Shown: positions 1 through 22,677, counted from the first letter of the stretch. The stretch: 28,119 nucleotides of DNA from an uncultured Nitrospiraceae bacterium (GCA_963705105.1 CAVPIW010000015.1:1-28119), one strand, 5' to 3'. The notes: generated from the sequence alone by a model not told the origin. Translations and numbers: made by a program.

Positions 1-53
1 CGCCAGAACTCACGGGCGGGCAATCGCCCGTCCCGTGGAGTGAAATGTTGTAC
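1..53 (-). mobile_element. attC: attC site (minus strand), cut by the window edge at the crossover G
   Basis: Reverse complement reads GTACAAC-ATTTC-ACTCCACG-GGACGGGCGATTGCCCGCC-CGTGAGT-TCTGGC-G: R'', 5-nt spacer, 8-nt L'' with extra base, 7-nt L', spacer, G. It follows the stop of the minus-strand gene 76-840. Confidence 0.85.
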
Positions 54-75
54 CTTATTCTAAATTTTGATTACA

Positions 76-840
76 CTATTTTTCAGTTGCTGTTTTCCCC
101 AAGAGTTGGTCGGCCAATTGCTGAGCACACATGTCTGCTGCTTGACCGAATTTTGCTTTTAAAAGACTACAGTTATTCGCTATCAGCTCGTCCCATGTTG
201 AACTGGTTGTTAGGGTTTCATTTTCATCAAATTTACAATAACCAAGCCACATAACTCTTGAATCTTGCAAACGGATTAGCCGCGAGCGTATCGAATAGAT
301 GATAAAATAACGGCTAGTAGTCCACCTGGTCCATGGCTTGGGAAAGAGAGTCCAATGATGGGTTTTAAAATCCATCACCAACTCATTACCAAATTTACTC
401 CTCAATGCATCCAGTTCATCGCTTTCCAAACGCTCTGGAACAACACGGAAAGTTTTTATTTCCATTTGAGCCGACCAACTGTCAATTACCCTTTCTCTGA
501 CCCTTATTGAAGGGTCTTCCAAAGAACATTGCTCCTTCAGTTTTTCTCCCTCGGCTTTAGCTATCTCAACAGATGCAAGACCACCAAGAATACCGCCAAT
601 CGCGACTCCTACATCAGATATAGGTGTTTGAGCACTAAGCGAGGGGGATGAATAATGGACTACGTGAATTAATGGTTGATCCTTCAACTGTTCCAATTCA
701 TTACGGTCAATTGAGACGAATGAAGGAGCACATCCTTGACCTAACACAGACAAGATCAAAACAATCAATATGGTTCCAATGCCTGTGACGTGACGAGAGG
801 GTAAAAATAAAAACGTGGAATTATTTCTATTTTTCTTCAT
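76..840 (-). CDS. Cassette-borne hypothetical lipoprotein
   Basis: 254-aa ORF with basic N-terminus, hydrophobic stretch and lipobox-like LGQG-C; purine-rich RBS; AT-rich; bounded by (A)TTGTAC at 883-877 and attC 1-53. Confidence 0.75.
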   Translation of the reverse strand: MKKNRNNSTFLFLPSRHVTGIGTILIVLILSVLGQGCAPSFVSIDRNELEQLKDQPLIHVVHYSSPSLSAQTPISDVGVAIGGILGGLASVEIAKAEGEKLKEQCSLEDPSIRVRERVIDSWSAQMEIKTFRVVPERLESDELDALRSKFGNELVMDFKTHHWTLFPKPWTRWTTSRYFIIYSIRSRLIRLQDSRVMWLGYCKFDENETLTTSSTWDELIANNCSLLKAKFGQAADMCAQQLADQLLGKTATEK

Positions 841-889
841 ATTCCCTATCCCCCTTGTTATACAAATTTATTCAAAGTACAATAAATGA

Positions 890-1137
890 TGGGGCGAGGA
901 TATTTAAAATGTCCCTGCCCACGATAAATAACGACAAATACAATGGGCAGGGACTATGAACGACAATAAGGAGGCCTCGCCCCATCAGGGGCCGCTGTGC
1001 TTGCACCGCCAGCGTCTCGCTGTGCGTCCTCTGATAGAGGCCGCCCATCAAGCCACTGGAGCGCACTGCGTCCTGCGGCTACCAGCCCACAACTTCGTGG
1101 GCTTCCCGCCTCCGTCGCAGCCGCTCAGCGGCCCCTG
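890..1137 (+). repeat. 248-bp ORF-less structured element, copy 1
   Basis: Matches 2871-3118 except one base (ctgcggct vs ctgcagct). Nested inverted repeats tggggcgagg/cctcgcccca, gtccctgccca/tgggcagggac and caggggccgctg/cagcggcccctg; ends in G|TTATGC. Confidence 0.95.
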
Positions 1138-1162
1138 TTATGCACATATTGACCAAAAGGAT

Positions 1163-1639
1163 ATGAATAGAATATTCGATGTAGTTCGTAGCAATGCGGC
1201 AGCATCTTGGACAGTTTCACTTGCCATAGGCTTTTTCTATTACTACGGCTACGCTCTTTCGCGAGTGATCATAAGACCCCTAATTATTTCTTGGTCTCCC
1301 AAATTCATTTTCGATCCAACGGCTGGTTCAAGTGTGGAAAGGGTGGCTCTCTTCAATGTCTTTGAGTCAGCAGCAGTCGCGATCCCCGTAGGCATTATAT
1401 TATCACTCCTCCTTTGTGCTATTTTTCAGAAAAAAGCTGCGGTCCATGGCACTGCCTCCATTCTGATCTTTCTGTTCATGTTTGCCATGCTAATCGGTTT
1501 GCGGTTGTCTTCTGAGAATGATCCATTGTGGTGGATAAGAGTCATCAAGCCGATTTCCGCCGCCATAGTCTTCGGACTGGTACTATGGTTAATAACCAAA
1601 AGCAAGGTTTGCTTAACAAGCGGGTCGAGGCGAGCGTGA
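1163..1639 (+). CDS. Cassette-borne hypothetical membrane protein (about 4 TM)
   Basis: ATG at 1163 after AAAGGA. The longer ORF from 956 merely reads through the repeat. Hydrophobic segments; stop lies inside the attC. Confidence 0.7.
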   Translation: MNRIFDVVRSNAAASWTVSLAIGFFYYYGYALSRVIIRPLIISWSPKFIFDPTAGSSVERVALFNVFESAAVAIPVGIILSLLLCAIFQKKAAVHGTASILIFLFMFAMLIGLRLSSENDPLWWIRVIKPISAAIVFGLVLWLITKSKVCLTSGSRRA

Positions 1640-1695
1640 ATAGCCCTGCCTCTTTCTTGGGGTGAGTGCCCGCCGCCTCACCCTTTTCGTTAGGC
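1611..1695 (+). mobile_element. attC: attC site
   Basis: GCTTAAC...GTTAGGC ends with imperfect palindrome (gaggcg...cgcctc); R'' nearly complements GTTATGC at the cassette start. Confidence 0.8.
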
Positions 1696-1720
1696 CATAT
1701 CATCAAGCGGATGGAAATAT

Positions 1721-2575
1721 ATGCCTGTTGTTAAAGTAAAGGATTTTCAGATCAATTATTAGATCACTTGCGATGCTGAAAGTCCAACACTGTTGTTGGT
1801 TCCAGGCTTTGGCGAGCAAATTGGTTCGGTTGAATACCCAAAGGAACAATGTCACGTATTCGCCGATCATGGTTTCCGAGTTGTGAGGATGGAGAACCGG
1901 GACAGTGGGATTTCGAGACCTACTGTTGGCGATGAACAAATTCAGCCCTATAGTCTGAAAGACACAGCAGATGATGTAGCAGCCGTCATCAATGATATAG
2001 GGGAACCGGTGCATTTGATAGGTGCCTCTATGGGAGGATTTATTGTTAGATGGGCTGCTGTTCGTCATCCAGACAAGATCAAAACGCTAACCGTAGTGAT
2101 GAGCGGAAGTGGTGCAGGACCTCAGGATAATGGACCGCAAATGTCAAAAGCCGCTGCGGATGAGGTGAGTGGATACCTTCAGCACCGTTCCCGTGACGAG
2201 CAAATTGCATGGAACTTAGATATTTGGCGTTGGAGCTGGGGGAACAAGTATCCATTTCCGGCAGAATGGATTATAGAGTGCTTGGGTCACGCCTACGATA
2301 GATCTTACAACCCAGAAGGCAATGCTCGCCTTTTACATGCCCTCATAAGTACTCAGGGGCTTTGGGATGCTCAGAAAAAGATTTCCTGTCCTACTTTGGT
2401 TATGCACGGTGGAGAGGATCCAGTCTTCTCTCAGGAACACGGAGAGGCAATCGCCGCACGCATACATAATGCAGAGTTGTGGCTGGATCAGAAAATGGGT
2501 CATATTATGCACCAAGAGCAATGGGAGGATATGGCAAGTCGTGTGGCGAAATTAGCGGGACTCACACTTCGTTAA
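1721..2575 (+). pseudogene. Alpha/beta-fold hydrolase with in-frame TAG at codon 14
   Basis: GASMGG nucleophile motif, HGGEDP and GH motifs. In-frame upstream start MPVVKVKDFQINY* (TAG 1760-1762) continues ITCDAESPTLLLVPG into the 1793-2575 ORF. Confidence 0.7.
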
Positions 2576-2804
2576 TTACTCAAAGTGCGTACTGCTATTG
2601 AATAAAAATAAGATGCTCAACTCGCGCTACGGTGATTTTGGGCAAAGAGTTTTGAAGGTGGAAGCTTTTCTTACCCACAATAGCACATGGAAAGTAGTCG
2701 GTGCTCTCAACTACTTGCATCACAATCATTATGAGAAATTTAAGACGGTTGCGCCATTTTTAACGCCAGAAAGAGAACCAGGCTCATTCTATATCCAAAA
2801 AATC

Positions 2805-2870
2805 GCCTAACAAGGCGCTGCACCGGACGGCAATTCCGCTGCGCTCCATTGCCGCCGGTGAGCTTTGTCG
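2805..2870 (+). mobile_element. attC: attC site joined at its crossover G to the 248-bp element
   Basis: GCCTAAC-AAGGC-GCTGCACC...GGTGAGC-TTTGTC-G; canonical L''/L' with extrahelical bases; R'' complements GTTAGGC at 1689. Confidence 0.9.
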
Positions 2871-3118
2871 TGGGGCGAGGATATTTAAAATGTCCCTGCC
2901 CACGATAAATAACGACAAATACAATGGGCAGGGACTATGAACGACAATAAGGAGGCCTCGCCCCATCAGGGGCCGCTGTGCTTGCACCGCCAGCGTCTCG
3001 CTGTGCGTCCTCTGATAGAGGCCGCCCATCAAGCCACTGGAGCGCACTGCGTCCTGCAGCTACCAGCCCACAACTTCGTGGGCTTCCCGCCTCCGTCGCA
3101 GCCGCTCAGCGGCCCCTG
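2871..3118 (+). repeat. 248-bp ORF-less structured element, copy 2
   Basis: Direct repeat of 890-1137; starts right after the attC G and ends in G|TTAGGT. Confidence 0.95.
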
Positions 3119-3131
3119 TTAGGTGGTGCCA

Positions 3132-3923
3132 ATGAACTCTGCAATGGTCGGTGCATTGGCCGCGGCAATTGTAGTGCCCATCGTTATGGCACTGCTAGCT
3201 AAGGCGTTCCCGCCAACTGTTACTGCCCAATCCGGAGCCTCTCTTGAAACTTTGAAGCCCAAATTCGCAAAATGGGAGGTGCGCCTCTCGCTCCTGTATG
3301 TAGCGTTGTGGATTCCAGTGACAGGTGCGATCTGGCTACCCCTTCAAGCCACCTCTGACTTCACCGCAAGCCTCCTCGGACCTGCGGATTTCCGGATTAC
3401 CCCCGGTGCCACCTTCTGGTTCATCCCGGCCTTCTTTCTCGCACTAGCCGTAGCGGCCGTTCCACTCAAGTGGGTCGCGGCAAGGCTATTAGGCCCCGAT
3501 TACACCGAATACGAAACATATCTCGCGTTGAAACACCGAATCGACTTTGCGCGCGTGAACCGTCTCACCTGCTGGGCCGTCGGATGGCTTGTCGGGATTA
3601 TCGTGGCCCTTGGACTGAACTGGTACGTTCTGATCCGCTCCGACGCTTTCGTAATCAATCCACTCTTCAGCTTCAGCGAGACCGTGCATCCGTACAGCGA
3701 TGTTCAAGCAATACAAACTGCACCGCAGCTTATCGCGCCAAATGGCAACATCGTCCGAAGACGAGAATTTCTCATCAGATTCCGTGACAGAAGCATATGG
3801 TCCACTCAGAATCTTCCAGTCACTTTGAATGAATCAGAGAAACGTACAATGCTGGAAAAGGTCGCGGAGCGAGCCGGCTTACCGATTGAGGAATTGCAAT
3901 CGTTCGGGAAAGGAGTCCTGTAA
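3132..3923 (+). CDS. Cassette-borne hypothetical membrane protein
   Basis: Long ORF, ATG after AGGTGG, about 4 hydrophobic segments plus soluble C-terminal domain, followed by attC. Confidence 0.75.
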   Translation: MNSAMVGALAAAIVVPIVMALLAKAFPPTVTAQSGASLETLKPKFAKWEVRLSLLYVALWIPVTGAIWLPLQATSDFTASLLGPADFRITPGATFWFIPAFFLALAVAAVPLKWVAARLLGPDYTEYETYLALKHRIDFARVNRLTCWAVGWLVGIIVALGLNWYVLIRSDAFVINPLFSFSETVHPYSDVQAIQTAPQLIAPNGNIVRRREFLIRFRDRSIWSTQNLPVTLNESEKRTMLEKVAERAGLPIEELQSFGKGVL

Positions 3924-3950
3924 TGAGGCGCTATCTAACAGTAATATGGC

Positions 3951-4047
3951 GCCTAACTTCTCGGTCAACCGGACGCCCAACCGGCTTGCGCCGTTTGGGT
4001 TCCCTCCGCGCTGCGCGCTCCGGCGCCGGTTACCTCCAACGTTAACC
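3951..4047 (+). mobile_element. attC: attC site
   Basis: GCCTAAC-TTCTC-GGTCAACCGG...CCGGTTACC-TCCAAC-GTTAACC. Confidence 0.85.
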
Positions 4048-4061
4048 CCACAAAACAAATA

Positions 4062-4090
4062 TGGACAGATCGCACGTATCCCCCTATAAT
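4062..4090 (+). promoter_or_regulatory. Sigma70-type promoter of the toxin-antitoxin cassette
   Basis: TGGACA-17 nt-TATAAT just upstream of ATG 4107. Confidence 0.7.
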
Positions 4091-4106
4091 TTAAGAGAGA
4101 CTTGAT

Positions 4107-4364
4107 ATGCCGACAGTCAGGAACATCGCGGGACCATACCGATTCTTCTTTTACAGTTTCGACTGCAATGAACGAACGCATGTCCACATTCAGAGAGAAA
4201 GGATGGTCTGCAAATTCTGGATTCAACCGGTGGCTCTATCGAGGAATCAGGGGTTTGCGCCGAAAGAACTCAACATTATACGGGGGATAATCTTAAAGAA
4301 CAGAGACAAGATCACGGAGGCATGGAATGAACACTGCGGTACAAATACAGGAAGTGCGAATTAA
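4107..4364 (+). CDS. DUF4160-family protein (putative TA partner)
   Basis: MPTV...GPYRFFFYSFD..E..HVH...KFW pattern typical of DUF4160; overlaps the next gene. Confidence 0.85.
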   Translation: MPTVRNIAGPYRFFFYSFDCNERTHVHIQRERMVCKFWIQPVALSRNQGFAPKELNIIRGIILKNRDKITEAWNEHCGTNTGSAN

Positions 4365-4677
4365 GGATATAGACGTCACCGAAGACTCCATTACGGCCCA
4401 TCTTATGGATGGGAGGACAATCAGTGTTCCGCTTGCCTGGTCATGGAGGTTGTCGGAGGCTACGCCGAAACAGCGGGCAAACTGGGAGATCATCGGAGAC
4501 GGCCATGGTGTGCATTGGACCGATATTGATGAAGATATCAGTGCCGAAGGCATGCTTTACGGTATTCCCGCTCCCAGGCCTCGGGAGTCTTCCAAATTGA
4601 ATCCGAAGCCAGCAAAGAAGAAACCCGCGGTTAACAAGGGCATCCAGCGGACCGCCAAGAAAGCCGGCTCCCGCTGA
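4327..4677 (+). CDS. DUF2442-family protein (putative TA partner)
   Basis: LMDGRTISVPLAW...L..AT..QR.NW....G.GVHW.DIDEDIS signature; standard partner of DUF4160. Confidence 0.85.
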   Translation: MNTAVQIQEVRIKDIDVTEDSITAHLMDGRTISVPLAWSWRLSEATPKQRANWEIIGDGHGVHWTDIDEDISAEGMLYGIPAPRPRESSKLNPKPAKKKPAVNKGIQRTAKKAGSR

Positions 4678-4691
4678 AGCCCACGTCAGCG
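4629..4691 (+). mobile_element. attC: attC site with variant R' (GTC)
   Basis: GGTTAAC (complements GTTAACC at 4041)...cagcgg/ccgctg stem...GTCAGCG. Confidence 0.75.
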
Positions 4692-4703
4692 AAAGGAGAA
4701 AAC

Positions 4704-5387
4704 ATGAAACGTTCTATACGATTGCTGCTCACCATAACATTCTTCCTGCTGGTGTCGATCGTATATGCCCAGCCGCCCGGCAGTGAGTTGCTGGAAGGCA
4801 AAGACACCGTAACTGCCGTCGTTCTTGCACATGGGAGAGGCGAAGGACCGGACGGGAAGGTTGTCGGTCTGCTGCGCAAAGCCATTAACAAAGAGCTTGG
4901 TTTCTACACGCTTTCGCTTCAAATGCCAGTGCTTCCCGTTAAGGATTTCCGAGCCTATGCCCCAACTTTTCCGGATGCCTATAAAACCATCCAGGCAGCC
5001 ATCGATTACCTAACGAGGGAGAAAGGTGTGAAGCGGATCTATCTAATGGGTTACAGTATGGGGGCACGGATGACCACTTCCTTTATTGTTGAAAGGCCAA
5101 CGCCGGTGATTGTTGGGTACATAGGCGTAGGACTCTTGGAAGGTGGAGGTAAGCCATTAGACGCGAATCAGAACCTGTCGGGCATTCGACTATCGGTAAT
5201 TGACATCTTCGCCGACCAAACGCCTCTCGATCTGAAGAGCGCTGAAAACCGGCGCTCGATGATCTCAGATGCGTTTAAACAGGTCAGAATCTCCGGTGCA
5301 GATCACAGTTTTCTGGGCTACGATGAACAGATCGTTCGAGCTGTCGTTGAATGGTTGACGGAGCGAGAAGGAAAGAAGCCACGCTAA
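4704..5387 (+). CDS. Secreted alpha/beta-hydrolase family protein (cassette)
   Basis: Signal peptide, LAHG, GYSMGA, GADH motifs; RBS AAGGAG; stop TAA lies in R'' of the attC. Confidence 0.8.
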   Translation: MKRSIRLLLTITFFLLVSIVYAQPPGSELLEGKDTVTAVVLAHGRGEGPDGKVVGLLRKAINKELGFYTLSLQMPVLPVKDFRAYAPTFPDAYKTIQAAIDYLTREKGVKRIYLMGYSMGARMTTSFIVERPTPVIVGYIGVGLLEGGGKPLDANQNLSGIRLSVIDIFADQTPLDLKSAENRRSMISDAFKQVRISGADHSFLGYDEQIVRAVVEWLTEREGKKPR

Positions 5388-5439
5388 CACTCGTTCACGG
5401 GATCGCGTTCCACGCTCCCCGAGATTCTTAGCGTTCGTC
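5382..5439 (+). mobile_element. attC: attC site (short, imperfect)
   Basis: CGCTAAC...cggg.gcgt/acgc.cccg...GTTCGTC. Confidence 0.65.
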
Positions 5440-5457
5440 AGATCTAGGGAGAATGCA

Positions 5458-5679
5458 ATGAAGGAGAAGACCGCATGGGAGCGCGGTTTCGTCGGAACGG
5501 AACTCAGGCTGCTCTTTCGCCTTGCGGGGCTGTCTGTCGTCAACATGTGGGGCGGAACGGCCGGCAACTGGGGGAGACGAACTCTCGACTTGGACGAGTA
5601 TGAAATCATGATTGTGGCAACCAAGACTGCCGAACCGTCGGCCGGTGCGGACACGCTATTGCGCACCGCACAGCCGTAA
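5458..5679 (+). pseudogene. Probable C-terminal fragment of a class I SAM methyltransferase (mini-cassette)
   Basis: 73 aa, ERGF..TEL.LLF.LAGL.V...WGGTAG resembles methyltransferase C-termini; no GxGxG motif. Confidence 0.5.
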
Positions 5680-5687
5680 CGTTGCTA
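5629..5687 (+). mobile_element. attC: attC site
   Basis: GCCGAAC...gtgcgg/ccgcac stem...GTTGCTA; R'' nearly complements GTTCGTC at 5433. Confidence 0.7.
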
Positions 5688-5746
5688 ACAGGACATACAA
5701 GTAGGAGTCTGAAGCTTCAAATGTTTAGCGAAGGAGGAAATTGTCC

Positions 5747-6187
5747 ATGGACTATTTTCAAATGACCGCTCCATGCGGCCTGGATTGTTTCAATTGCCAT
5801 TTCTATTTGGCCAAAGAGAACCGGGAATCCATGGCTGTAGTTGAGAAAATATCCAGCGAATACAAGATTCCGGTTGAGGCAATGCTTTGTAAAGGTTGTC
5901 GCAGCCACAATGGCCAAATACCAATTCAAAAACAAGTCTTCGGTGAAGCGCATCATTGTGCAGCCTATGAATGTTCCCACGAAAAGGGTTTCAGATTTTG
6001 CGGCGACTGCGATCAGTTTCCCTGCGACAACCTGCATCCATATGCTGACAAGGCTGGCGATCTGCCCCACAATATCAAAGTGTTCAATCTGTGCTTGATT
6101 AAGAAGATGGGCTTGGAAAGATGGGCCGAGCATAAGGCCGCTGAAGTACGCAAAGTCTACTTCACCAAACCTTGGACCCTGGTGTGA
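5747..6187 (+). CDS. DUF3795-family cysteine-rich protein
   Basis: APCGLDCFNC, CKGC, C..Y.C......FCGDC..FPC motifs; RBS AGGAGG. Confidence 0.85.
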   Translation: MDYFQMTAPCGLDCFNCHFYLAKENRESMAVVEKISSEYKIPVEAMLCKGCRSHNGQIPIQKQVFGEAHHCAAYECSHEKGFRFCGDCDQFPCDNLHPYADKAGDLPHNIKVFNLCLIKKMGLERWAEHKAAEVRKVYFTKPWTLV

Positions 6188-6301
6188 TCTCTCGATCCGT
6201 TTGAATTAGCTTGAAAAACCAGGAAATTGAACAGCAAAATGCAGCGGAGCGTGGAACGATCTGACAGCACGATCCCGTCCCGGGAGGTCTCCGGTTAGAC
6301 C

Positions 6302-6850
6302 ATGCACATCTGCCCGTCATATTTGTCTTTCATCCTGTACAACCCGATCCGCAAGTTATTTACCGACAGGGCAAGGATTGTCTTGGAGGCGGGGGTGAAT
6401 GAATCCTCGGTCGTCCTGGAGGCGGGCGCCGGAAACGGCTTTCTGACGGAGGTCCTGGTGCAGCGGGCGTCCAAAGTTCTCGCCATGGACGTGCAGCAGG
6501 GCATGGTGAAGAAGCTCAGGAGACGGATGTCGGCATATGGCGACAGGGTCGACGTCATTCTCGGTGATGTCGCGACGTATGCATTGAAGGAAGAGTCCAT
6601 CGACGTGGCCATTTTCCTGTACAGCTTCCACGAGATCACCAATCAAACAGGGGCGGTCCTCAATATGGCGAAGGCAGTCAGGCCTGGAGGCTTCGTCGCC
6701 GTCTACGAACCGAAGGTCGAAGTGAACCGGCGGGACATGGAGAATCTGGTCGAAAAGTTCGAATTCATGGGGTTCGAAAAGGACAGGGAGCACGAAAACA
6801 TGTTCACGAGATTCGCCAGGCTGAGGAAGGTGAGAAGGGTGGTGGTCTGA
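6302..6850 (+). CDS. Class I SAM-dependent methyltransferase
   Basis: VLEAGAGNG motif I, AMD, HEI, RPGG motifs. Confidence 0.85.
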   Translation: MHICPSYLSFILYNPIRKLFTDRARIVLEAGVNESSVVLEAGAGNGFLTEVLVQRASKVLAMDVQQGMVKKLRRRMSAYGDRVDVILGDVATYALKEESIDVAIFLYSFHEITNQTGAVLNMAKAVRPGGFVAVYEPKVEVNRRDMENLVEKFEFMGFEKDREHENMFTRFARLRKVRRVVV

Positions 6851-6860
6851 ATGCGGGGAG

Positions 6861-7625
6861 GTGAGAGTGGAAATGATGAGCTATGAGGAACGCCTCGGCA
6901 AGGCCGTTCGTCTCGTCTTGGCATCGCAGAGAATCGTCGCCTTTACCGGGGCTGGCATATCGACGGAATCGGGACTGTCCGATTTCCGGAGTCCCGGCGG
7001 GATCTGGGAGCGCCACAGGATCGTCATGTTCCAGGAATTCGTCGCCAGTCATGACGCCCGCGTGGAGGCCTGGACGATGAGGAGGGAATTAAACCGTCAG
7101 ATGATGAGCGCCCGGCCCAACAAGGCCCATCTTGCCCTTGCAGCGCTTGAAAGGAAAGGAAAACTCAGCTGCCTCATCACGCAGAACATCGACGGTCTCC
7201 ACCAGGAGGCGGGCAGTTCGAACGTGATCGAGCTCCACGGGACGAACAGGAAGGCCCTTTGCCTCTCCTGCGGGAAGACGTGGCCGATGGGGGACATTCA
7301 AAGGCTGCTCGATGCGGGCAATCTCGACCCATCATGTGATGACTGCAAAGGGATCATAAAGCCCGCGACTGTCTCCTTCGGGCAGGCTATGCCGGAGCGG
7401 GAGATGGAACTCGCCTATACATACTCGTCAAAGTGCGATCTCTTCATCATGATCGGCTCGTCTCTTCAGGTCGAGCCGGCTGCATCGTATCCGCGGCTTG
7501 CTCACAGGGCTGGGGCAAGGCTCATCTTCGTCAACAGGACGGAAACACCCTGGGATCATATCGCATCCGTGCTATTTCAGGAAGATGCCGGAAAGGCGCT
7601 CGGAGACATGTCCGAGATGGTCTGA
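6861..7625 (+). CDS. cobB: Sir2-family NAD-dependent protein deacylase
   Basis: TGAGISTESG, TQNIDGLH, ELHG, two CxxC, GSSLQV motifs. Confidence 0.93.
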   Translation: MRVEMMSYEERLGKAVRLVLASQRIVAFTGAGISTESGLSDFRSPGGIWERHRIVMFQEFVASHDARVEAWTMRRELNRQMMSARPNKAHLALAALERKGKLSCLITQNIDGLHQEAGSSNVIELHGTNRKALCLSCGKTWPMGDIQRLLDAGNLDPSCDDCKGIIKPATVSFGQAMPEREMELAYTYSSKCDLFIMIGSSLQVEPAASYPRLAHRAGARLIFVNRTETPWDHIASVLFQEDAGKALGDMSEMV

Positions 7626-7639
7626 CAGCGCGGCTGCAT

Positions 7640-7669
7640 TTGAAATTCGCGGTCCGTTAATGATACATT
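7640..7669 (+). promoter_or_regulatory. Putative tRNA promoter
   Basis: TTGAAA-18 nt-TACATT with TG extension, 9 nt before the tRNA. Confidence 0.5.
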
Positions 7670-7678
7670 TAAAGTCAC

Positions 7679-7751
7679 GGGCGGTTAGCTCAGTTGGGAG
7701 AGCGCCAGAATCGCACTCTGGAGGCCGAGGGTTCGACCCCCTTACCGTCCA
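7679..7751 (+). tRNA. tRNA-Ala (anticodon CGC), CCA not encoded
   Basis: Acceptor GGGCGGT/ACCGTCC with G3:U70, D arm GCTC/GAGC, anticodon stem CCAGA/TCTGG with loop ATCGCAC, T loop TTCGA. Confidence 0.95.
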
Positions 7752-7974
7752 CTTTTTTCCTCCTCTGTGTATCAGCAAGTTAAGCTCATCACGATGTGCC
7801 AAACAATAGAGGCAATTTGCACGAAAGCGGTTCCCTTCACATTTCCAGTCCCTTCATGGTATTGTTTTTTTGTGTGATTCTGTCATCATCACAAATGACC
7901 GAGATGCGGAAGAAACACGGAAAATGATGGGGAGCCCTATAGAATAATAGCCCTCGGGATTTCTTGGAGGAACG

Positions 7975-8226
7975 ATGGGAAAGGTTGTATTGGATATACC
8001 CGAAGAGGTCCTTATCTCCCTTAAGGAAACGGATCACGAGTTTTCCCGGGAGTTGCTCATGCTTGCTGCTGTCAAGCTGTATCAAATGGGCAAACTGTCA
8101 TCGGGAAGAGCGTCTCAGCTTGCGGGAATCGGTAGGGTGAGTTTCCTTCAGTCACTTTCGCGTTACGGAGTGTGTGCATTTGAATTGTCACGGGAGGAAA
8201 TAGAACAGGATTTCGAGAATGCCTGA
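7975..8226 (+). CDS. UPF0175-family antitoxin-like protein
   Basis: AAVKLY..GKLSSGRA..LAG..R..FL..L signature; overlaps downstream PIN gene. Confidence 0.88.
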   Translation: MGKVVLDIPEEVLISLKETDHEFSRELLMLAAVKLYQMGKLSSGRASQLAGIGRVSFLQSLSRYGVCAFELSREEIEQDFENA

Positions 8227-8706
8227 TGCTGTCATCGCCGATACCTCGCCCATTTTTTATCTTCACAGGGTCGGCTGCCTCGGCATCCTGGAGAGCCTTT
8301 ATGGCGGGATATTGATCCCCGGAGCAGTGGCGATTGAACTTGACGCAGGCAGGCGTGCAGGTGAAGACGTCCCTGTCATTGAACAGTTCTCATGGATAAG
8401 TACGAAAACCCCGGTTCTTGCCGGATGGTCTCTTCTGGTTCCCGATTTGGGACATGGCGAGCAGAGGTGATTGCGCTCGGAAGAGAGGTGAAAGGAGCCT
8501 TGCTTATTATTGATGACGCACTGGGGCGCCGGATTGCCAAATTGAACGGCCTTAAGATTACGGGGACTGCCGGTGTTTTACTCAGAGCAAAAAATAAGGG
8601 AATTTTAGCGGAGGTTAAGCCGATTTTGGAGAGGATGAGGGAATCCGGTTTTTTTCTCAGCGACAGGTTGATGAGTGAGATATTGGAGATGGCCGGTGAG
8701 AGATAG
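8219..8706 (+). pseudogene. DUF3368 PIN-domain toxin-like gene with a frameshift near 8460
   Basis: IADTSP...DLGHGE in one frame; AEVIAL...IIDD...R..A...GL..TGT.GVL in the next. GGCGAGCAGAG lacks one base relative to GE-AE. Confidence 0.8.
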
Positions 8707-8719
8707 TGCGAGAATTGCA

Positions 8720-8923
8720 ATGAGCAGGGCTGAGCTTAAGTCGGAGCTGAAACGCCTCCGGAACAATCTTGAAGATCTTGAGGACATGGTCAGGTTCGAT
8801 TTTACCTTTACGTCGGCCCACATCGGCGGCGCCCAGGTGAGAAGGGACGAAGACAATATGAGAAGACTGAGGGAGACGATAGCGCGGATCGAGGAACTCC
8901 TGTCGGCGGAGGACAGGAGATGA
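8720..8923 (+). CDS. Small coiled-coil hypothetical protein
   Basis: 67-aa charged helical ORF filling the gap and converging on the GT4 gene. Confidence 0.6.
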   Translation: MSRAELKSELKRLRNNLEDLEDMVRFDFTFTSAHIGGAQVRRDEDNMRRLRETIARIEELLSAEDRR

Positions 8924-8928
8924 CGCCC

Positions 8929-10044
8929 TCAGGATACGATCTTCTCGATGACGGCGAGGAATTCCCCGGCTGCCCGTTCAATCGGGTACTGTTCAGCCTT
9001 TGATCTTGCTTCCGCTCCCATCCGTTCACGTTGATCCAGCGTCTGTCTGATTCTGCCGGCAAGCATGACCGGGTCACAATGTGCGTCGACGACATAGCCC
9101 TCCACGGCATCACTCACGAGTTCGGCGGCGCCGTTGTTCCTTGTCGTTATGACGGGAAGCCCTGCCGCCATGGCCTCGATGGTGGCATTGCTGAAGGGGT
9201 CGTAGAGCGTAGGAAGCACGAAGATGTCCGAGGCTGCGTAGAGTCTTTCGATCCCGCTGCAGGGACCGAGGAACAGGACATCGTCCGAAAGTCCCGCGCG
9301 CCTGATAAATGCGCTGTATCGGCGCGACTCTCCCTTGCCCGCCACGATGACCTTCAACCCGCCGACACCGACATGCGGGACGGCTCTGAGGAGCACATCA
9401 AGGCCTTTCCGTTCGAAGCCCGACCCCGCAAACAGTACGACCTTCGCCTGTTCGGGAACCGCGAGGTCCGCCCGGATGCTGTTGCGCCATTGTTTCCTGT
9501 TCTCCGGCGTGAACCGTGACAGATCGACGCCGTTGTACACCGTCGAAATCCTCTCCGCCGGGACGCCGTAGTGCCCCATGATCTGCTCTTTCACCATGCC
9601 GGAATTGGCGACGATGCGTTTCGTTCCGGAGAAGAGCCTTCTTTCAAGGCTCAGCAGGAGGATGTGAAGGGGGTTGATCCTGAAGGAGAGCCTCTTGTGA
9701 AAGGGCTCGACGTGCCGCCTTATTGTCAGCCACTCGGCGTGGCATCCTTCACCGGCACGGTAGACGTCCTGGCAAGTCGTTCGTTCGAAGCTGACGACAC
9801 AGTCGAATTCTCTGTGCCGGCGGATTTCCCTGCAGACACGATGATTGAAGGTGTATGTCGAGAGGAATGATCCGGCGGTGATGACGGGAACGCGGTGGAA
9901 GGTGACTCCCACCACATCCGACCAGAGGGAGGAAAAGATGTGGGTGCCGTGGCCGGAGCGCTGCAGCGCTTCAACGAGGGTCTGGAGATACCTTTCGGCG
10001 CCGCCGTGAAAGGAGAAGCGCTTCTTGATAAAGGCAAGGTTCAC
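8929..10044 (-). CDS. GT4 glycosyltransferase, WaaG/RfaG-like LPS core type
   Basis: GGAERY, GSGFERKG, LPTLYDPFSNATIEAMAAGLPVI motifs. Confidence 0.9.
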   Translation of the reverse strand: MNLAFIKKRFSFHGGAERYLQTLVEALQRSGHGTHIFSSLWSDVVGVTFHRVPVITAGSFLSTYTFNHRVCREIRRHREFDCVVSFERTTCQDVYRAGEGCHAEWLTIRRHVEPFHKRLSFRINPLHILLLSLERRLFSGTKRIVANSGMVKEQIMGHYGVPAERISTVYNGVDLSRFTPENRKQWRNSIRADLAVPEQAKVVLFAGSGFERKGLDVLLRAVPHVGVGGLKVIVAGKGESRRYSAFIRRAGLSDDVLFLGPCSGIERLYAASDIFVLPTLYDPFSNATIEAMAAGLPVITTRNNGAAELVSDAVEGYVVDAHCDPVMLAGRIRQTLDQRERMGAEARSKAEQYPIERAAGEFLAVIEKIVS

Positions 10045-10050
10045 CTTCCA

Positions 10051-10247
10051 GTCGCGTGAAAGGCGGGCCGAAGCGCCTCAAACCCTTGCTGAAGGCGACG
10101 ATGAGCATTGTCAGGTTCGTCTCTCAGGATTCCGCTCTCTGTTAGATTGACCGTTGGCTTGAAAAGTCGTCTGGTGTGATGGTTAAGGTGTCGCCGCATC
10201 AAGGTTTTCGGCGCGTGCACCCCGCCTTCCTGTCGGGCGTATGCGAC
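10051..10247 (+). repeat. ~200-bp palindromic intergenic element, centre type 1 (copy A)
   Basis: GTCGC...GCGAC ends; aaggcggg/cccgcctt, gcgcc/ggcgc and ggcgac/gtcgcc stems. Confidence 0.85.
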
Positions 10248-10278
10248 GACACGGTTCATGGACGGGCTGGTGGGCGCC

Positions 10279-10707
10279 CTATTCCCAGTTCGTCACGTCC
10301 GCGTCTTCTCCCTCTCCTCCAGGCTTTCCGTCCCTGCTGTAGGTAAAGAGGTCATACTCCCCGTGCGAGCCGGGACTCTGGTAAAGATACGGTTTTCCCC
10401 AGGGGTCGACGGGCAGCCCTTTTTTCAGGTACGGGCCCTCCCATTTTTCGACGCCCGGGTTTGTGGTGAGGGCGTTGAGGCCCTGCTCCGTCGTGGGGTA
10501 TGCCGCGACGTCGAGCCTGTATTGGTCGAGGGCCTGACCGAGGAGTTCGATCTGGGCCTTTGCGGCAGCCTGCTTGCCCTTGCCGAGTTTCGGGAACAGG
10601 CGGGGACCGACGAGGGCGGCCAGGAGCCCGATGATCACCATGACAACAAGGAGCTCAACGAGGGTGAAGCCCTTCCGGTTTCTGACTCTATGCCATTGAG
10701 ATTGCAT
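10279..10707 (-). CDS. gspG: Type II secretion major pseudopilin GspG
   Basis: G|FTLVELLVV prepilin site, YRLD, YPTTEQGL, WEGPYL, DPWG motifs. Confidence 0.95.
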   Translation of the reverse strand: MQSQWHRVRNRKGFTLVELLVVMVIIGLLAALVGPRLFPKLGKGKQAAAKAQIELLGQALDQYRLDVAAYPTTEQGLNALTTNPGVEKWEGPYLKKGLPVDPWGKPYLYQSPGSHGEYDLFTYSRDGKPGGEGEDADVTNWE

Positions 10708-10734
10708 GATATTCCTCCAAGTGAAATTTTGTTT

Positions 10735-10764
10735 ATTCTACCAGACGGGCAGATAGGGGGTCAA
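10735..10764 (-). promoter_or_regulatory. Putative sigma70 promoter of gspG
   Basis: Minus strand TTGACC-18 nt-TAGAAT with TG extension. Confidence 0.6.
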
Positions 10765-10777
10765 ACGGACTCCTCCA

Positions 10778-10975
10778 GTTGCGTGCAAAGGCGGGGTGAA
10801 GCGCCTCAAATCCTTGCTGAAGGCGATGATAAGCCTCGTCAGGTTCGTCTTTCAGGCTTCCACTCTCCGTGCGATCGACCATTGAGTTGAAAAGTCGTCT
10901 TCTGTGACGCGTAAGGTGTCGCCGCATCAAGGTTTTCGGCGCATGCGCCCCGCCTTCCCGGATGGCGGGTGGCAC
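10778..10975 (+). repeat. ~200-bp palindromic intergenic element, centre type 1 (copy B)
   Basis: Colinear and similar to copy A throughout. Confidence 0.85.
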
Positions 10976-11000
10976 GAACCGCACCCCGGTGGCCCTTGCC

Positions 11001-11029
11001 TTGCCATTACGGGGAAATCTCGTTAAACT
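11001..11029 (+). promoter_or_regulatory. Putative sigma70 promoter of the glycan operon
   Basis: TTGCCA-17 nt-TAAACT upstream of 11090. Confidence 0.6.
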
Positions 11030-11089
11030 ATAGCGAACCATGTTAAATAAACAGACACTTTCGCGGGCATTCCGGTTTAACATTCCCTC

Positions 11090-14000
11090 GTGAATCAGCG
11101 AAGCGACATTCATCCGCCCCTCGTCTCGATCATCGTCAGAACGAAGGACAGGCCGAAACTCCTGCAGAGTGCGCTGCACAGCATCGCCGCGCAGACTTAC
11201 CGGAACATCGAAGTCGTGTTGGTCAATGACGGCGGCGTCGACCTTGACATCGATAATTTGAGATCCCTCCTCGGCGGGATGCCCCTCATCTACGTGAAGC
11301 TTGACGTGAACAGGGGGAGAGCCTATGCTGCCAACGCGGGAATCGGCAACGCCCATGGTGGATATGTCGGATTTCTCGATGACGATGACGAGTACTATCC
11401 GGAACACGTCGCCACACTTGTCACCTTCCTGGAACAGAGCGATTACAAAGTCGCCTACACCGGTACGGAGATGGTCTACCAGGAGTACGATCCTGAAATG
11501 GAACGCATGGCCGACCGTGAAAAGATGGTATTTGCAAGGGAGTTCTCCTATAAGGACCTCCTGATCGTCAACTATATACCTTTCAATTCCATCCTTTTTT
11601 CGAAAAGCGTCATCGCGTCCGTCGGGGAACTCGACGAGTCCTTTCCTCTCTACGAGGACTGGGATTTCCTCATCAGGGCGGCGTCCACCATGCCCTTTTA
11701 CCATATCGGGAAGATCACGACGATGTACCGGCAGTGGAGCCGGGGCATGCAGATCAATCAGGCCGATGATGCCTACATGCGCGACCTGCGTCTGAGGATC
11801 ATAGAAAAGCACCGCGACAAGATCGTCCCGGGGAATATCCTTGCAATACATGATGAAAAGGAGCGGTTATTCATAGAGCGGGAGAGTCTCTCGGAGACCC
11901 TCGCCGAAAGAAACGGCCATGTGAGCCGTCTGGAGGCATTGCTGTCCGAGAAGGACCGGTTGCTGTCCGAGAAGGACCGGGTGATCTCGGAAAAAGAGCG
12001 GGCGATCTCGGAAAAGGAAGCGCACATCGCCCGGCTTGACGACAGTTTGAGGGAACAGTTGCAGCACACGGCTGACCTGGAGAAACAATTGATGGACAGG
12101 ATTGCCGGGCTTGAGTCCGCCATCGGCGCCATGGGAGACACACTCGGCTGGAGGATGCTCGAGACGTTCAGAAGATGGAGGGAGAAGCTCCTTCCGCCTG
12201 GAAAGAGGAGGCGGCGGGTCTATGACCTCGCCGTACGCACAGTCAAAGTCTTTAAGGCCGAGGGCGTCAGGGGGGTATCGCTGCGTTCAAGGGCCAGGCT
12301 GTCATCGCTTGTGCACACAACGCGTGAACTCGCCGGCAAAGCCCTCACGGTTTACAGGACAAAGGGTTTCGCCACCTTCCTCAGGTATTGCGCGGCATAC
12401 ATGCTCCACGGCCCCGGACATTTCAAGGCCCGGCAGGCATATACACAGGATGCATACGAACAATGGATCAGGAAACATGAAGAACCGGACATACAGCACC
12501 TCAGGCTGAAGGCGAAAGACCTGTCGTACATGCCGACAATCAGCGTCGTGACGCCCGTATACAACGTGGACCCGAAATGGCTCAGGCGGTGCATCGATTC
12601 GGTCATATCCCAGGCATACGGGAACTGGGAACTATGCATCTACGACGATGCCTCCACAAACGACGGGACCCTGTCGCTGCTGAAGACCATGACCGGCAAT
12701 GACGGGAGAATCAAAGTCGTTCTGGGCAAGGAAAATCTGGGCATCGCCGGCGCTACGAACGAGGCATTGGCGATGGCGACGGGAGAATTCATCGCCCTTC
12801 TCGACAACGATGACGAGCTTTCGCCCGATGCGCTTTATGAGGTCGCCGCGCTTCTGAACGCGCAGCCTGACCTCGATCTGATTTACAGCGATGAAGACAG
12901 GATCATCGAGACGGACGAGGGCGAGCAGAAACGGTATGATCCCTTTTTCAAGCCGGACTGGGATCCCCATCTCCTCTTCGCGAGCATGTATACGGGACAC
13001 CTGAGTGTCTACAGGAAGAGCATCATAGAGGCCGTCGGCGGGTTCCGCAGGGCCTACGATTTTTCTCAGGACTATGATCTCGCCCTCCGCGTGATGGAGC
13101 GGACAAACAGGATCGGGCACATCAGGAAAGTGCTCTATCACTGGCGGGCCATACCCGGCTCCGCTGCCGCGGGGGGAAAGGACTTCGCCAGGAGATCGAA
13201 CATCGGCGCCCTCCTGTCTGCCGTCCAGAGGAGGGGATATGACGCCGAGGTGTTCGAGTATCCTTTCGCGAACAGGGTGAAGTTCAGGGTTAAGCATCCT
13301 CCCCTCGTTTCCGTCATCATCCCCACGGATAACAGGAAGAACGTCCTCAGCTGCATCGACCTGCTCCTAAGGCATACCGGTTATCCCAATTACGAAGTTG
13401 TCGTCGTGACCAACTCACCTCTCGGTGGCGAGATCAAGCAGGTCTATTCCCATGATCATCGCATCAGGATCTGTCCCTTCGACCAACCCTTCAATTTTTC
13501 CCTCAAATGCAACAGGGGAGGGGAATTTGCTTCAGGTGAATACCTTCTCTTTCTCAACGACGATGTCGAAGCGACCCACGAATCCTGGATAGAGGACATG
13601 GTCGGCGTCTTCGGCAAAGGAAATGTCGGAGGTGTGTCTCCGAAGCTATACTACGAGAACGACACGATCCAGTTTGCCGGCATGGTGACGGGCGTGCGGC
13701 GCCTCGTCGGGACGGCCTTCCACTGCCAGCCGAAAGACTCGGGCATGTATTTCAACCTCATCCAATCGGAAAGAAACGTCTCCCTCCTCTCCGGCGCCTG
13801 CCTTCTCATGGCGAAGACCGTTTTCACCGACGTCGGAGGATTCGATGCGGTGAATACCCCGGTCATGCATTCCGACATCGATCTCTGTTTCAAGCTGCTC
13901 GACCGGGGCTATGAACTCATTTACACCCCTTTCGCGTCGCTCCGCCACATCGGTCACCTTTCCCTCCGCGAGACGGACAGGCGGGAGCATCAGAAAAAGA

Positions 14001-17125: not shown

Positions 17126-17523
17126 GTTGCGCGAGAAGGCGGGGAGAAGCGCTCTGAAAAACAGTGTCAGTGACAGTGTGAGTGTCAGTAGACCTTAACG
17201 TTGCAATGGGACCTCCGGAAAGGCGGGGCGTATGCGCCGACAAGCCTCGGTGCTGCGAAACCTTTGCCTTCCCATACAGATCATGTCAGACAGATGGTGG
17301 ATGACACGAACGATGAATTCCCGATACACCAATAATAAACGATCATTCTCGCTATCAGCGAGGCATTGAGGCGCGTCGTCCCGCCTTTTCATTGCAACCG
17401 GAAGGGAGAGTGACTCCTTTTTTTCGACATTGGCTTGAAACGTTGTTCTCTGTGATGGTTATGGTGTCGCCGCATCAAGGTTTTCGGCGCATACACCCCG
17501 CCTTCGCAGAGGGCGTATGCAAC
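17126..17523 (+). repeat. Interrupted type-1 palindromic element (copy D: left arm 17126-17152, right part ~17425-17523)
   Basis: gttgcgcgagaaggcggggagaagcgc ... gtgtcgccgcatcaaggttttcggcgcatacaccccgcctt...tatgcaac. Confidence 0.7.
17200..17398 (-). repeat. ~200-bp palindromic element, centre type 2 (copy C), nested in copy D
   Basis: 9-bp terminal IR GTTGCAATG/CATTGCAAC; reverse complement closely matches 22483-22677. Confidence 0.85.
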
Positions 17524-20346: not shown

Positions 20347-20359
20347 ACTAACCTTGTCA

Positions 20360-20556
20360 ATGGAGTACGACAGCCGGAAAGGCGGGGCGAAGATGCCGAA
20401 AAGTCTTGGTGCTGCGACACCAATGCCTTCACGTGAGGATCATGTCAGGCCAACGGTTCATGACACGGAGGGAAGGATCCCCAATATCCAATTTCAAATG
20501 ATCATACTCTTTATCAGCAAGGCTTTGAGGCGTTTCACACCGCCTTTTCATGCAAC
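20360..20556 (-). repeat. ~200-bp palindromic element, centre type 2 (copy E, diverged)
   Basis: ccggaaaggcggggcg...gccga...ggtgctgcga...gatcatgtcag...tatcagcaaggctttgaggcg...cgccttttcatgcaac; left boundary approximate. Confidence 0.8.
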
Positions 20557-22482: not shown

Positions 22483-22677
22483 GTTGCCCGAAAGGCAGGG
22501 CGAAGCGCCTGCAAGCCTCGCTGATAGCGAGTATGATAGTTTATTATTGGTGTATCAGGAATTCATCCTTTGTGTCATCGACCCTCAGCCTGAAATGATC
22601 TGTATGGGAAGGCAAAGGTTTCGCAGCACCGAGGCTTTTCGGCGCTCACACCCCGCCTGTTCGGGCGTCTCTGCAGT
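22483..22677 (+). repeat. ~200-bp palindromic element, centre type 2 (copy F)
   Basis: Homologous to C and E in the opposite orientation; arms shared with A and B. Confidence 0.85.

Follow-up and report, generated by a model that had tools for sequence, protein, structure and literature searches.

A gene-less, two-armed integron cassette with a non-GTT core and an internal mirror of its own junction in Nitrospirota

The AAC/GTT triplet is treated as the sole invariant of attC sites, and the locus described here raises the question of how a gene-less element without this triplet comes to lie at integron crossovers in several copies. The DNA derives from an uncultured Nitrospiraceae bacterium (GCA_963705105.1, CAVPIW010000015.1:1-28119); by the window we mean this whole stretch of 28,119 nt. 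A sequence-only reading had reported two 248-bp copies (890-1137 and 2871-3118), and BLAST confirms that they carry a single difference (G at 1077, A at 3058). The start at 890 needs correction: copy 1, a gene-less two-armed cassette on the plus strand, is a full unit of 249 bp (889-1137) with the crossover at G888|A889 on the left and at G1137|TT on the right. Copy 2 (2871-3118, plus strand, 248 bp; arm 1 at 2956-2978, attC at 3024-3118) is short by its first A and has the substitution at 3058. We regard this as a deletion, because three other copies in the assembly and most relatives begin with G|AT. The R box of the GTG type that had been proposed is thereby a one-off, produced by the base loss in copy 2, while the more general observation of a non-GTT core stands.

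BLASTn of the assembly yields three copies beyond the window pair, giving four full copies and one 5' half in all. On contig C5 the element is the first cassette, at the attI beside an intact intI, and a second C5 copy is the fourth cassette; on contig C12 its first 109 bp lie at the attI of a second intI, with an ordinary cassette directly behind. Both intI are intact and above the TIGR02249 threshold (431 bits vs cut-off 265), and the attI of each is occupied, by the element on C5 and by its 5' portion on C12. One and the same attC is empty on C12 (G|TT) and filled by the element on C5 (G|AT) within a single assembly. Window positions 4040-11409, which take in the array tail, tRNA and flanking genes, share 98.5-99.6% identity with G000:C5:224777-217414, after which the two diverge, so that the window array appears to be a segmental duplicate of its C5 counterpart or a co-binned strain variant. 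The four full copies, although each has a junction of its own, consequently form two pairs within related arrays and not four unrelated loci. An assembly artefact is unlikely as the source of the duplication (both window copies are never spanned by one record), given that flanks differ between the copies, that private SNPs distinguish them and that run X1 has an independent copy, at a C5-type attI with a different cassette behind it.

The window begins inside a cassette array, and its contig has no integron integrase. Sites in the array were located with a heuristic attC finder, which missed several that are visible by eye. Upstream of copy 1 lies a cassette (48-888, plus strand) without an attC of its own; its ORF is inverted (76-840, minus strand) and matches nothing in Pfam or NCBIfam. 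The left flank of copy 1 turned out to be not an attC but a hybrid (877-888, plus strand), in which the R'' remnant of the previous cassette (877-882) is fused to six bases resembling an attI spacer (883-888). These six bases match the attI spacer on contig C5, and by analogy the hybrid probably originated as a delta-attI-type junction. Copy 2, as had been noticed, sits directly 3' of G2870, the crossover base of a canonical attC (2805-2870), which ends the ordinary alpha/beta hydrolase cassette between the copies (1690-2870, plus strand). Ordinary cassettes on the plus strand also follow copy 1 (1138-1689, attC 1611-1689) and copy 2 (3119-4041, attC 3951-4041). Both copies are indeed followed by the G|TT junction; the further claim of a TTRRR start holds for copy 2 (TTAGG) and fails for copy 1 (TTATG).

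Some neighbouring features deserve mention in their own right. The alpha/beta-hydrolase gene (1721-2575) has an in-frame stop near its 5' end and a weak macrolide esterase likeness, far under the cut-offs. A DUF4160/DUF2442 gene pair (4107-4677) forms one cassette and is presumably a toxin-antitoxin module. An intergenic repeat of about 190 bp recurs at 10059-10249, 10787-10977, 17192-17392, 20351-20551 and 22491-22669; with 280 BLAST matches in the genome, 163 of them of at least 150 nt, it is REP/MITE-like. The genome has four genes of the Y1 transposase family. A region of G000:C6 (about 28000-50000) and contig C3 are very GC-rich, of low complexity and unlike the remaining genome, possibly foreign DNA in the bin.

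The element is not confined to this assembly. A DNA search matched 9 of 317 genomes of the order (its own included, some matches being partial), a phylum-wide DNA search matched 3 of 401 genomes, all from the same order, and a covariance model gave matches in 11 of 71 chosen genomes. Pattern scans added 6 genome loci and 10 metagenome loci. Among viral contigs the single copy was truncated and duplicated a metagenome contig, and the pattern of the second family described below did not occur; plasmid and phage collections gave no match to the element. As seen so far, this is a small family of Nitrospirota genomes and metagenomes.

We counted 24 left ends after removal of five duplicate loci (L029, L031, L033, L034 and L045). 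All 24 follow a G. Six lie at an attI beside intI, six at attI-like sites without an intI match in the locus and ten at attC crossovers; one follows a probable attC (uninspected) and one is the delta-attI hybrid. Insertion at random non-att positions, which had been named as a refutation, was not encountered, 23 of the 24 ends being att-type on inspection. On the right, 19 of 20 ends read G|TT and the other reads G|TA, which is the start of a cassette of the second family. The element shares only the G with its attI and attC targets. Judged by these flanks, it is shown to occupy exact attI or attC crossovers, and the proposal of a recently mobile, non-coding unit that enters at the integron crossover is supported. 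The attI-type share (12 of 24 left ends) suggests an excess at the first position, a share that fragmentary assemblies may bias. The attI-like sites without an intI match upstream in the fetched DNA (L023, L027, L028, L038, L040 and L044) are possibly orphan attI platforms.

To read attI independently, we fetched 30 intI loci irrespective of the element, of which 21 had an attI readable by eye and 9 were unreadable. Seventeen of the 21 read G|TT and one G|TC, two held the element (one of these being the present genome) and one held the second family. Since 17 of 21 readable sites read G|TT without the element, attI lies upstream of it; the suggestion of a portable attI thus falls, as the site reads ...TAATTG|TT in element-free relatives. 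A flipped insertion through arm 1 was also considered and discarded: none of the 22 listed left ends is preceded by the element's own end. Neither circle junction nor empty-site joint was found in four Logan runs (contigs only, the element being covered only in X1). Likewise no RNA data set was listed as containing the element; neither result speaks to circle formation or expression. The integrases of this clade (L005:859-2166 and L003:862-2175) measure about 435 aa, with some 110 N-terminal residues before the TIGR02249 match that have no match in Pfam.

The element does not appear to code for anything. An open frame from the ATG at 956 is frameshifted or start-less in 6 of 14 copies, and its substitutions follow the pairing described below; no conserved protein-coding frame is present, as in other gene-less cassettes. 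In the window this frame runs through copy 1 into an in-frame fusion with the next cassette gene (956-1639, 227 aa). A leader peptide was rejected, the frame being unconserved in the family. The sequence likewise gives no hint of the promoter module that had been suggested: no sigma-70-like site was found wholly within 889-1137, and loop A has a TACAAT hexamer that shows no conservation. Nor does the element resemble a MITE of a known IS: apart from the shared G its targets are not duplicated, and a word-7 BLAST finds no similarity to any of the genome's six IS110-family loci. A longer, enzyme-bearing version with the same ends was absent from the genome, phylum, metagenome and viral searches.

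What sets the element apart is its architecture, in which one L'-R' arm has two rival partner arms (all coordinates on the plus strand). The joined ends are complementary to an internal segment at 975-997, as first proposed, and the complement is perfect over 23 bp when A889 is included. Within this arm 1, 975-986 pairs with the left end, that is with the R' half and its non-canonical GAT core (888-899), and 986-997 pairs with the right end (1126-1137). Such pairing is far beyond chance: a layout with an internal mirror of both ends occurred once in 1.12 Mb of Markov-resampled loci. The earlier reading further held that the site has no unpaired spacer and no extrahelical base in its L box, but a second, canonical arm at 1043-1137 supplies both. 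This arm 2, the attC, consists of R'' (GCCCATC, 1043-1049, with ATC and not AAC), a 5-nt spacer (1050-1054), L'' (1055-1062) with an extrahelical G and A, L' (GCTCAGC, 1123-1129), a 7-nt spacer (1130-1136) and G1137. Loop A holds an inner hairpin with an A-rich loop (911-954; 911-921 with 944-954), and two small conserved hairpins stand between the arms (1010-1040).

Conservation was assessed in an alignment of 14 distinct full-length copies, including one of the four from this assembly and excluding partial copies. In arm 1, 94% of cells are paired and two-sided changes occur in 11 of 23 pairs (6 of 12 on the left, 5 of 11 on the right), cells which overstate the independent events as 6 of the 14 copies share one stem type. 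The covariation score of arm 1 was reached by 0 of 500 shuffles; the structure was derived from one of the aligned sequences and kin are not independent, so such scores are not probabilities. Arm 1 pairs better with its own copy (mean 20.9 of 23) than across copies (16.1), and at least seven variants of the end spacer are each mirrored in it. Three copies (L016, L024 and the first L037 copy) have an arm 1 that is mismatched to its own end or chimeric. Overall, the alignment supports a pairing that is real and either selected or co-maintained. Elsewhere the pattern is one of invariance: 7 of 11 pairs of the loop A hairpin are invariant and none shows a two-sided change, the hairpin at 1010-1022 has one two-sided change and that at 1028-1040 is invariant. 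The L stem of arm 2, with its extrahelical G and A, is invariant in 11 of 11 pairs in all 14 copies; across the alignment it is conserved, and invariance yields no covariation.

Several loci (L016, L021, L037, L042, L026 and L100) show rearranged surroundings. Two copies are preceded by an attC that contains a group II intron, an IS lies within loop A of one copy, and a gene that we take to be RAYT-like cuts another; deletion derivatives have arm 1 joined to arm 2, or loop A alone.

The core triplet behaves differently towards the two arms. The 24 left ends have GAT (17), GAA (6) or a deletion (one), and the R'' of arm 2 has ATC, so that AAC/GTT is absent from R''/R'. In the four GAA copies among the 14, R'' nevertheless remains ATC in all four, leaving core position 3 unpaired, whereas arm 1 there reads TTC. 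Within the alignment the core triplet is thus shown to track arm 1, not arm 2.

Published data for IntI1 make such cores less surprising. Only the first core base must match between partners (PMC2811028), and paired attC-GAT, -GAA and -GTA sites are reported to recombine with wild-type attI1 at 1.9, 0.44 and 0.56 of the wild-type rate (PMC2811028, Table 4), a non-complementary GTT/ATC site giving 6e-6 against 2.2e-3 in the same work; all these rates come from IntI1, from which the clade's own enzyme differs by about 110 extra N-terminal residues. Since IntI1 tolerates paired GAT, GAA and GTA cores, no new chemistry would be needed. Since it requires only the first base, the missing AAC/GTT would lower the case for a canonical attC and not that for a cassette; with the exception of this triplet, the element shows the cassette features that we tested. 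The element is thus very probably an integron cassette without a gene, and the host IntI its mover. Applied to the element, the IntI1 core data (PMC2811028) would also predict an asymmetry between insertion and excision, given that the core is paired in the circle and that the flanking attC boxes in the array are mismatched. Arm 1 alone would be an unlikely substrate, because a site with a paired spacer and no extrahelical bases is reported to lose recombination 8.5e4-fold (PMC2727003). The idea that the element plugs attI was dropped, since attI1-GAT and attI1-GAA take wild-type cassettes at 4.6x and 0.75x (PMC2811028).

On balance we lean, by a modest degree, towards a split site, to which arm 1 contributes the R box and arm 2 the L box, and in which insertion is favoured over excision. 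In the single-stranded circle, pairing of arm 1 with the R box would preserve complementarity at the core, be it GAT or GAA, and arm 2 would provide the L box read by IntI; insertion of such a circle into a G|TT attI should be nearly as frequent as for the wild type. After insertion both adjoining attC R boxes would be mismatched and sequestered by arm 1, so that ordinary excision would be rare. Occasional excision, perhaps via a four-way junction pre-aligned by arm 1, followed by replicative (copy-paste) re-insertion at attI, could then give rise to duplicates. The net outcome would be an 'easy in, hard out' cassette that is selfish or stabilises the array.

Folding predictions agree with this scheme in part. 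Arm 1 stems have a predicted probability of 0.86-1.0 in circles of 14 of 14 copies, arm 1 is predicted to dominate on both strands, and the normal R box of the upstream attC has a predicted probability of about 0 in 6 of 6 contexts. The split fold is predicted to cost 3.3-12 kcal/mol, against 6.9-27 kcal/mol for a fold with arm 2 alone. Efficient entry of the circle is not assured, as the split fold carries this penalty and still has its central spacer paired. For the pre-aligned four-way junction the probabilities in six contexts are 0.01, 0, 0.15, 0.08, 0.62 and 0.47, a weak and mixed outcome with support in only two of the six. The presence of several copies per genome fits poorly with 'hard out'.

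The same plan recurs in a second family, whose cassettes (141-258 bp) are likewise gene-less and two-armed. This family is found at G000:C5:224970-224775 (minus strand; L013/L082), behind the fourth-position element, and at L050, L077, L078, L080, L083 and L085-L087, including other genomes and, five times, attI-type sites. Its cores are GTA or GTT and follow arm 1 as GTA/TAC and GTT/AAC, with two-sided changes in 11 of 26 pairs across 8 copies. Both families occur in the same arrays and have little sequence similarity. L081 is a one-armed minimal relative of the second family, from which arm 1 may be thought to have arisen by duplication of the R''-L'' arm. Given that members with a canonical GTT core keep arm 1, a ratchet of the kind sketched above would not be its origin. 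Taking both families together, it might be argued that two-armed gene-less cassettes form a distinct class of non-autonomous integron parasites, in which, once the DNA is single-stranded, an internal guide arm brings both ends together into a ready four-way junction or a split site, IntI excises and inserts them regardless of the pairing of neighbouring attC sites, the core is freed from GTT, copies accumulate at attI and neighbours are locked. We put this forward tentatively, as the less probable option.

The best surviving alternative turns the role of arm 1 around. Here arm 2 alone would be a working attC and arm 1 an anti-attC that hides it, holding the cassette and its neighbours in place. 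In the models the canonical fold costs 2.1 kcal/mol in array context without arm 1 and 9.5 kcal/mol with it, and for the pure arm-2 fold in circles the cost goes from 1-12 to 6.9-27 kcal/mol; fully paired sites are reported to recombine scarcely at all (PMC2727003), and arm 2 keeps every structural mark of an attC. In the second family most copies also retain AAC in arm 2. Nonetheless, arm 2 is uncomplementary to the core in the GAA copies and in the GTA copies of the second family, yet these reside at several independent sites, and a pure brake would bar entry of the circle as well. We consider this explanation rather unlikely.

Further down, the conserved fold might serve as RNA, with the cassette parts as mere carrier of a structured non-coding transcript from Pc (attenuator, sRNA or stability element). 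The 12 of 24 left ends at attI-type sites lie just behind the promoter region, loop A and the two small hairpins are conserved without a known DNA role, the plus strand folds well as RNA (z -6.9), and an untranslated first cassette should reduce downstream expression (PMC11511950). Such a role would not need covarying stems centred exactly on the crossover base, though, and Rfam, a check that had been proposed at the outset, gave no match at the gathering score nor at E up to 10. Moreover, the bottom strand of the DNA is predicted to be more stable than the top strand in 14 of 14 copies, a skew reported as a property of attC sites (PMC5027507). An RNA function is accordingly improbable in our view.

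A neutral origin is no more attractive. The cassette would then be an ordinary gene-less one whose core has drifted, and arm 1 a copy of the junction, duplicated in inverted orientation, whose match is maintained by correction or conversion with the hairpin as template. The one-armed L081 and the chimeric ends in L016 and L037 could be read in this way, as could the persistence of derivatives that lack loop B or the inter-arm stretch (C12, L026 and L027). But the same plan recurs in two families of little sequence similarity, and arms at distances of about 85 and 140 nt from their partners still track the spacer variants, which makes a neutral by-product a poor candidate. Very improbable, finally, is movement of a non-autonomous element in trans by another enzyme, which arm 1 would guide (an IS1111-attC/IS110 transposase, an HUH enzyme of the Y1/RAYT kind or the RT of a group II intron): IS110-family and Y1 genes are present in the genome (6 and 4 matches), some copies adjoin group II introns and RAYT-like genes, and IS1111 members are reported to target attC ends (PMC11187229), but the element has a full attC and inserts into both attI and attC, exactly where IntI crosses over and with only the G in common, and neither IS110 similarity nor an enzyme-bearing version came to light in the searches described above.

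Finders that rely on AAC/GTT would tend to miss or mis-call such cassettes, and spreading natural cassettes with variant cores that IntI1 tolerates constitute a natural test of the work on engineered sites. Whether gene-less cassettes persist and multiply because they are selfish or because they are useful is an open question (PMC1382264); the two-arm design offers a concrete mechanism that is testable with two or three point mutations. Should the ratchet exist, cassette turnover could be controlled through the DNA fold alone.

Gene-less paralogous cassettes are already known; new is a structurally unusual gene-less cassette with an internal mirror of its junction. Among literature titles and abstract openings (a scope outside which most subscription papers and supplements fall) none described a cassette that mirrors its own junction or a natural non-GTT family. 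Mobile elements that target integron sites, and that form or use structured intermediates, include the group IIC-attC introns. The IS1111-attC elements (PMC11187229) are described as similar in this respect; both kinds encode a transposase or RT and interrupt attC, whereas the element codes for nothing, has an attC and enters attI. With the delta-attI-type cassettes as described in PMC12901181 the likeness is limited to the flank of copy 1, where a short attI remnant (here six bases) stands in place of the preceding cassette's attC, and does not extend to the element.

Closer relatives are the gene-less cassettes of the Vibrio paralogous families (PMC1382264), the promoter cassettes (PMC11014356) and those reviewed in PMC8876359. 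According to these accounts they likewise lack a conserved ORF, carry a 3' attC, occur as near-identical copies per array, are restricted to lineages and are conserved over their full length. The element adds a second arm that mirrors the junction and a covarying non-GTT core, whereas theirs are described as 'classical attC', and the main text of PMC1382264 and PMC11014356 makes no mention of a hairpin or palindrome. Engineered attC mutants (Frumerie 2010, PMC2811028) and attG sites (GWT; bioRxiv 2022.09.11.507474) resemble the element in that GAT, GAA and GTA are reported as tolerated in one partner and only the G is common with the target; the cores found here, in contrast, are natural, cassette-borne and spread across genomes, and GAA and GTA fall outside the GWT consensus as given there. 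Finally, with the canonical attC as described by Bouvier 2009 (PMC2727003) and Nivina 2016 (PMC5027507), arm 2 shares R'', the 5-nt spacer, L'' with its extrahelical G, the second extrahelical base, L', a spacer of 6-7 nt and the crossover after G. It departs from that model in its triplet, which is ATC/GAT or TTC/GAA instead of AAC/GTT, and in having beside it an arm 1 that is predicted to out-compete it.
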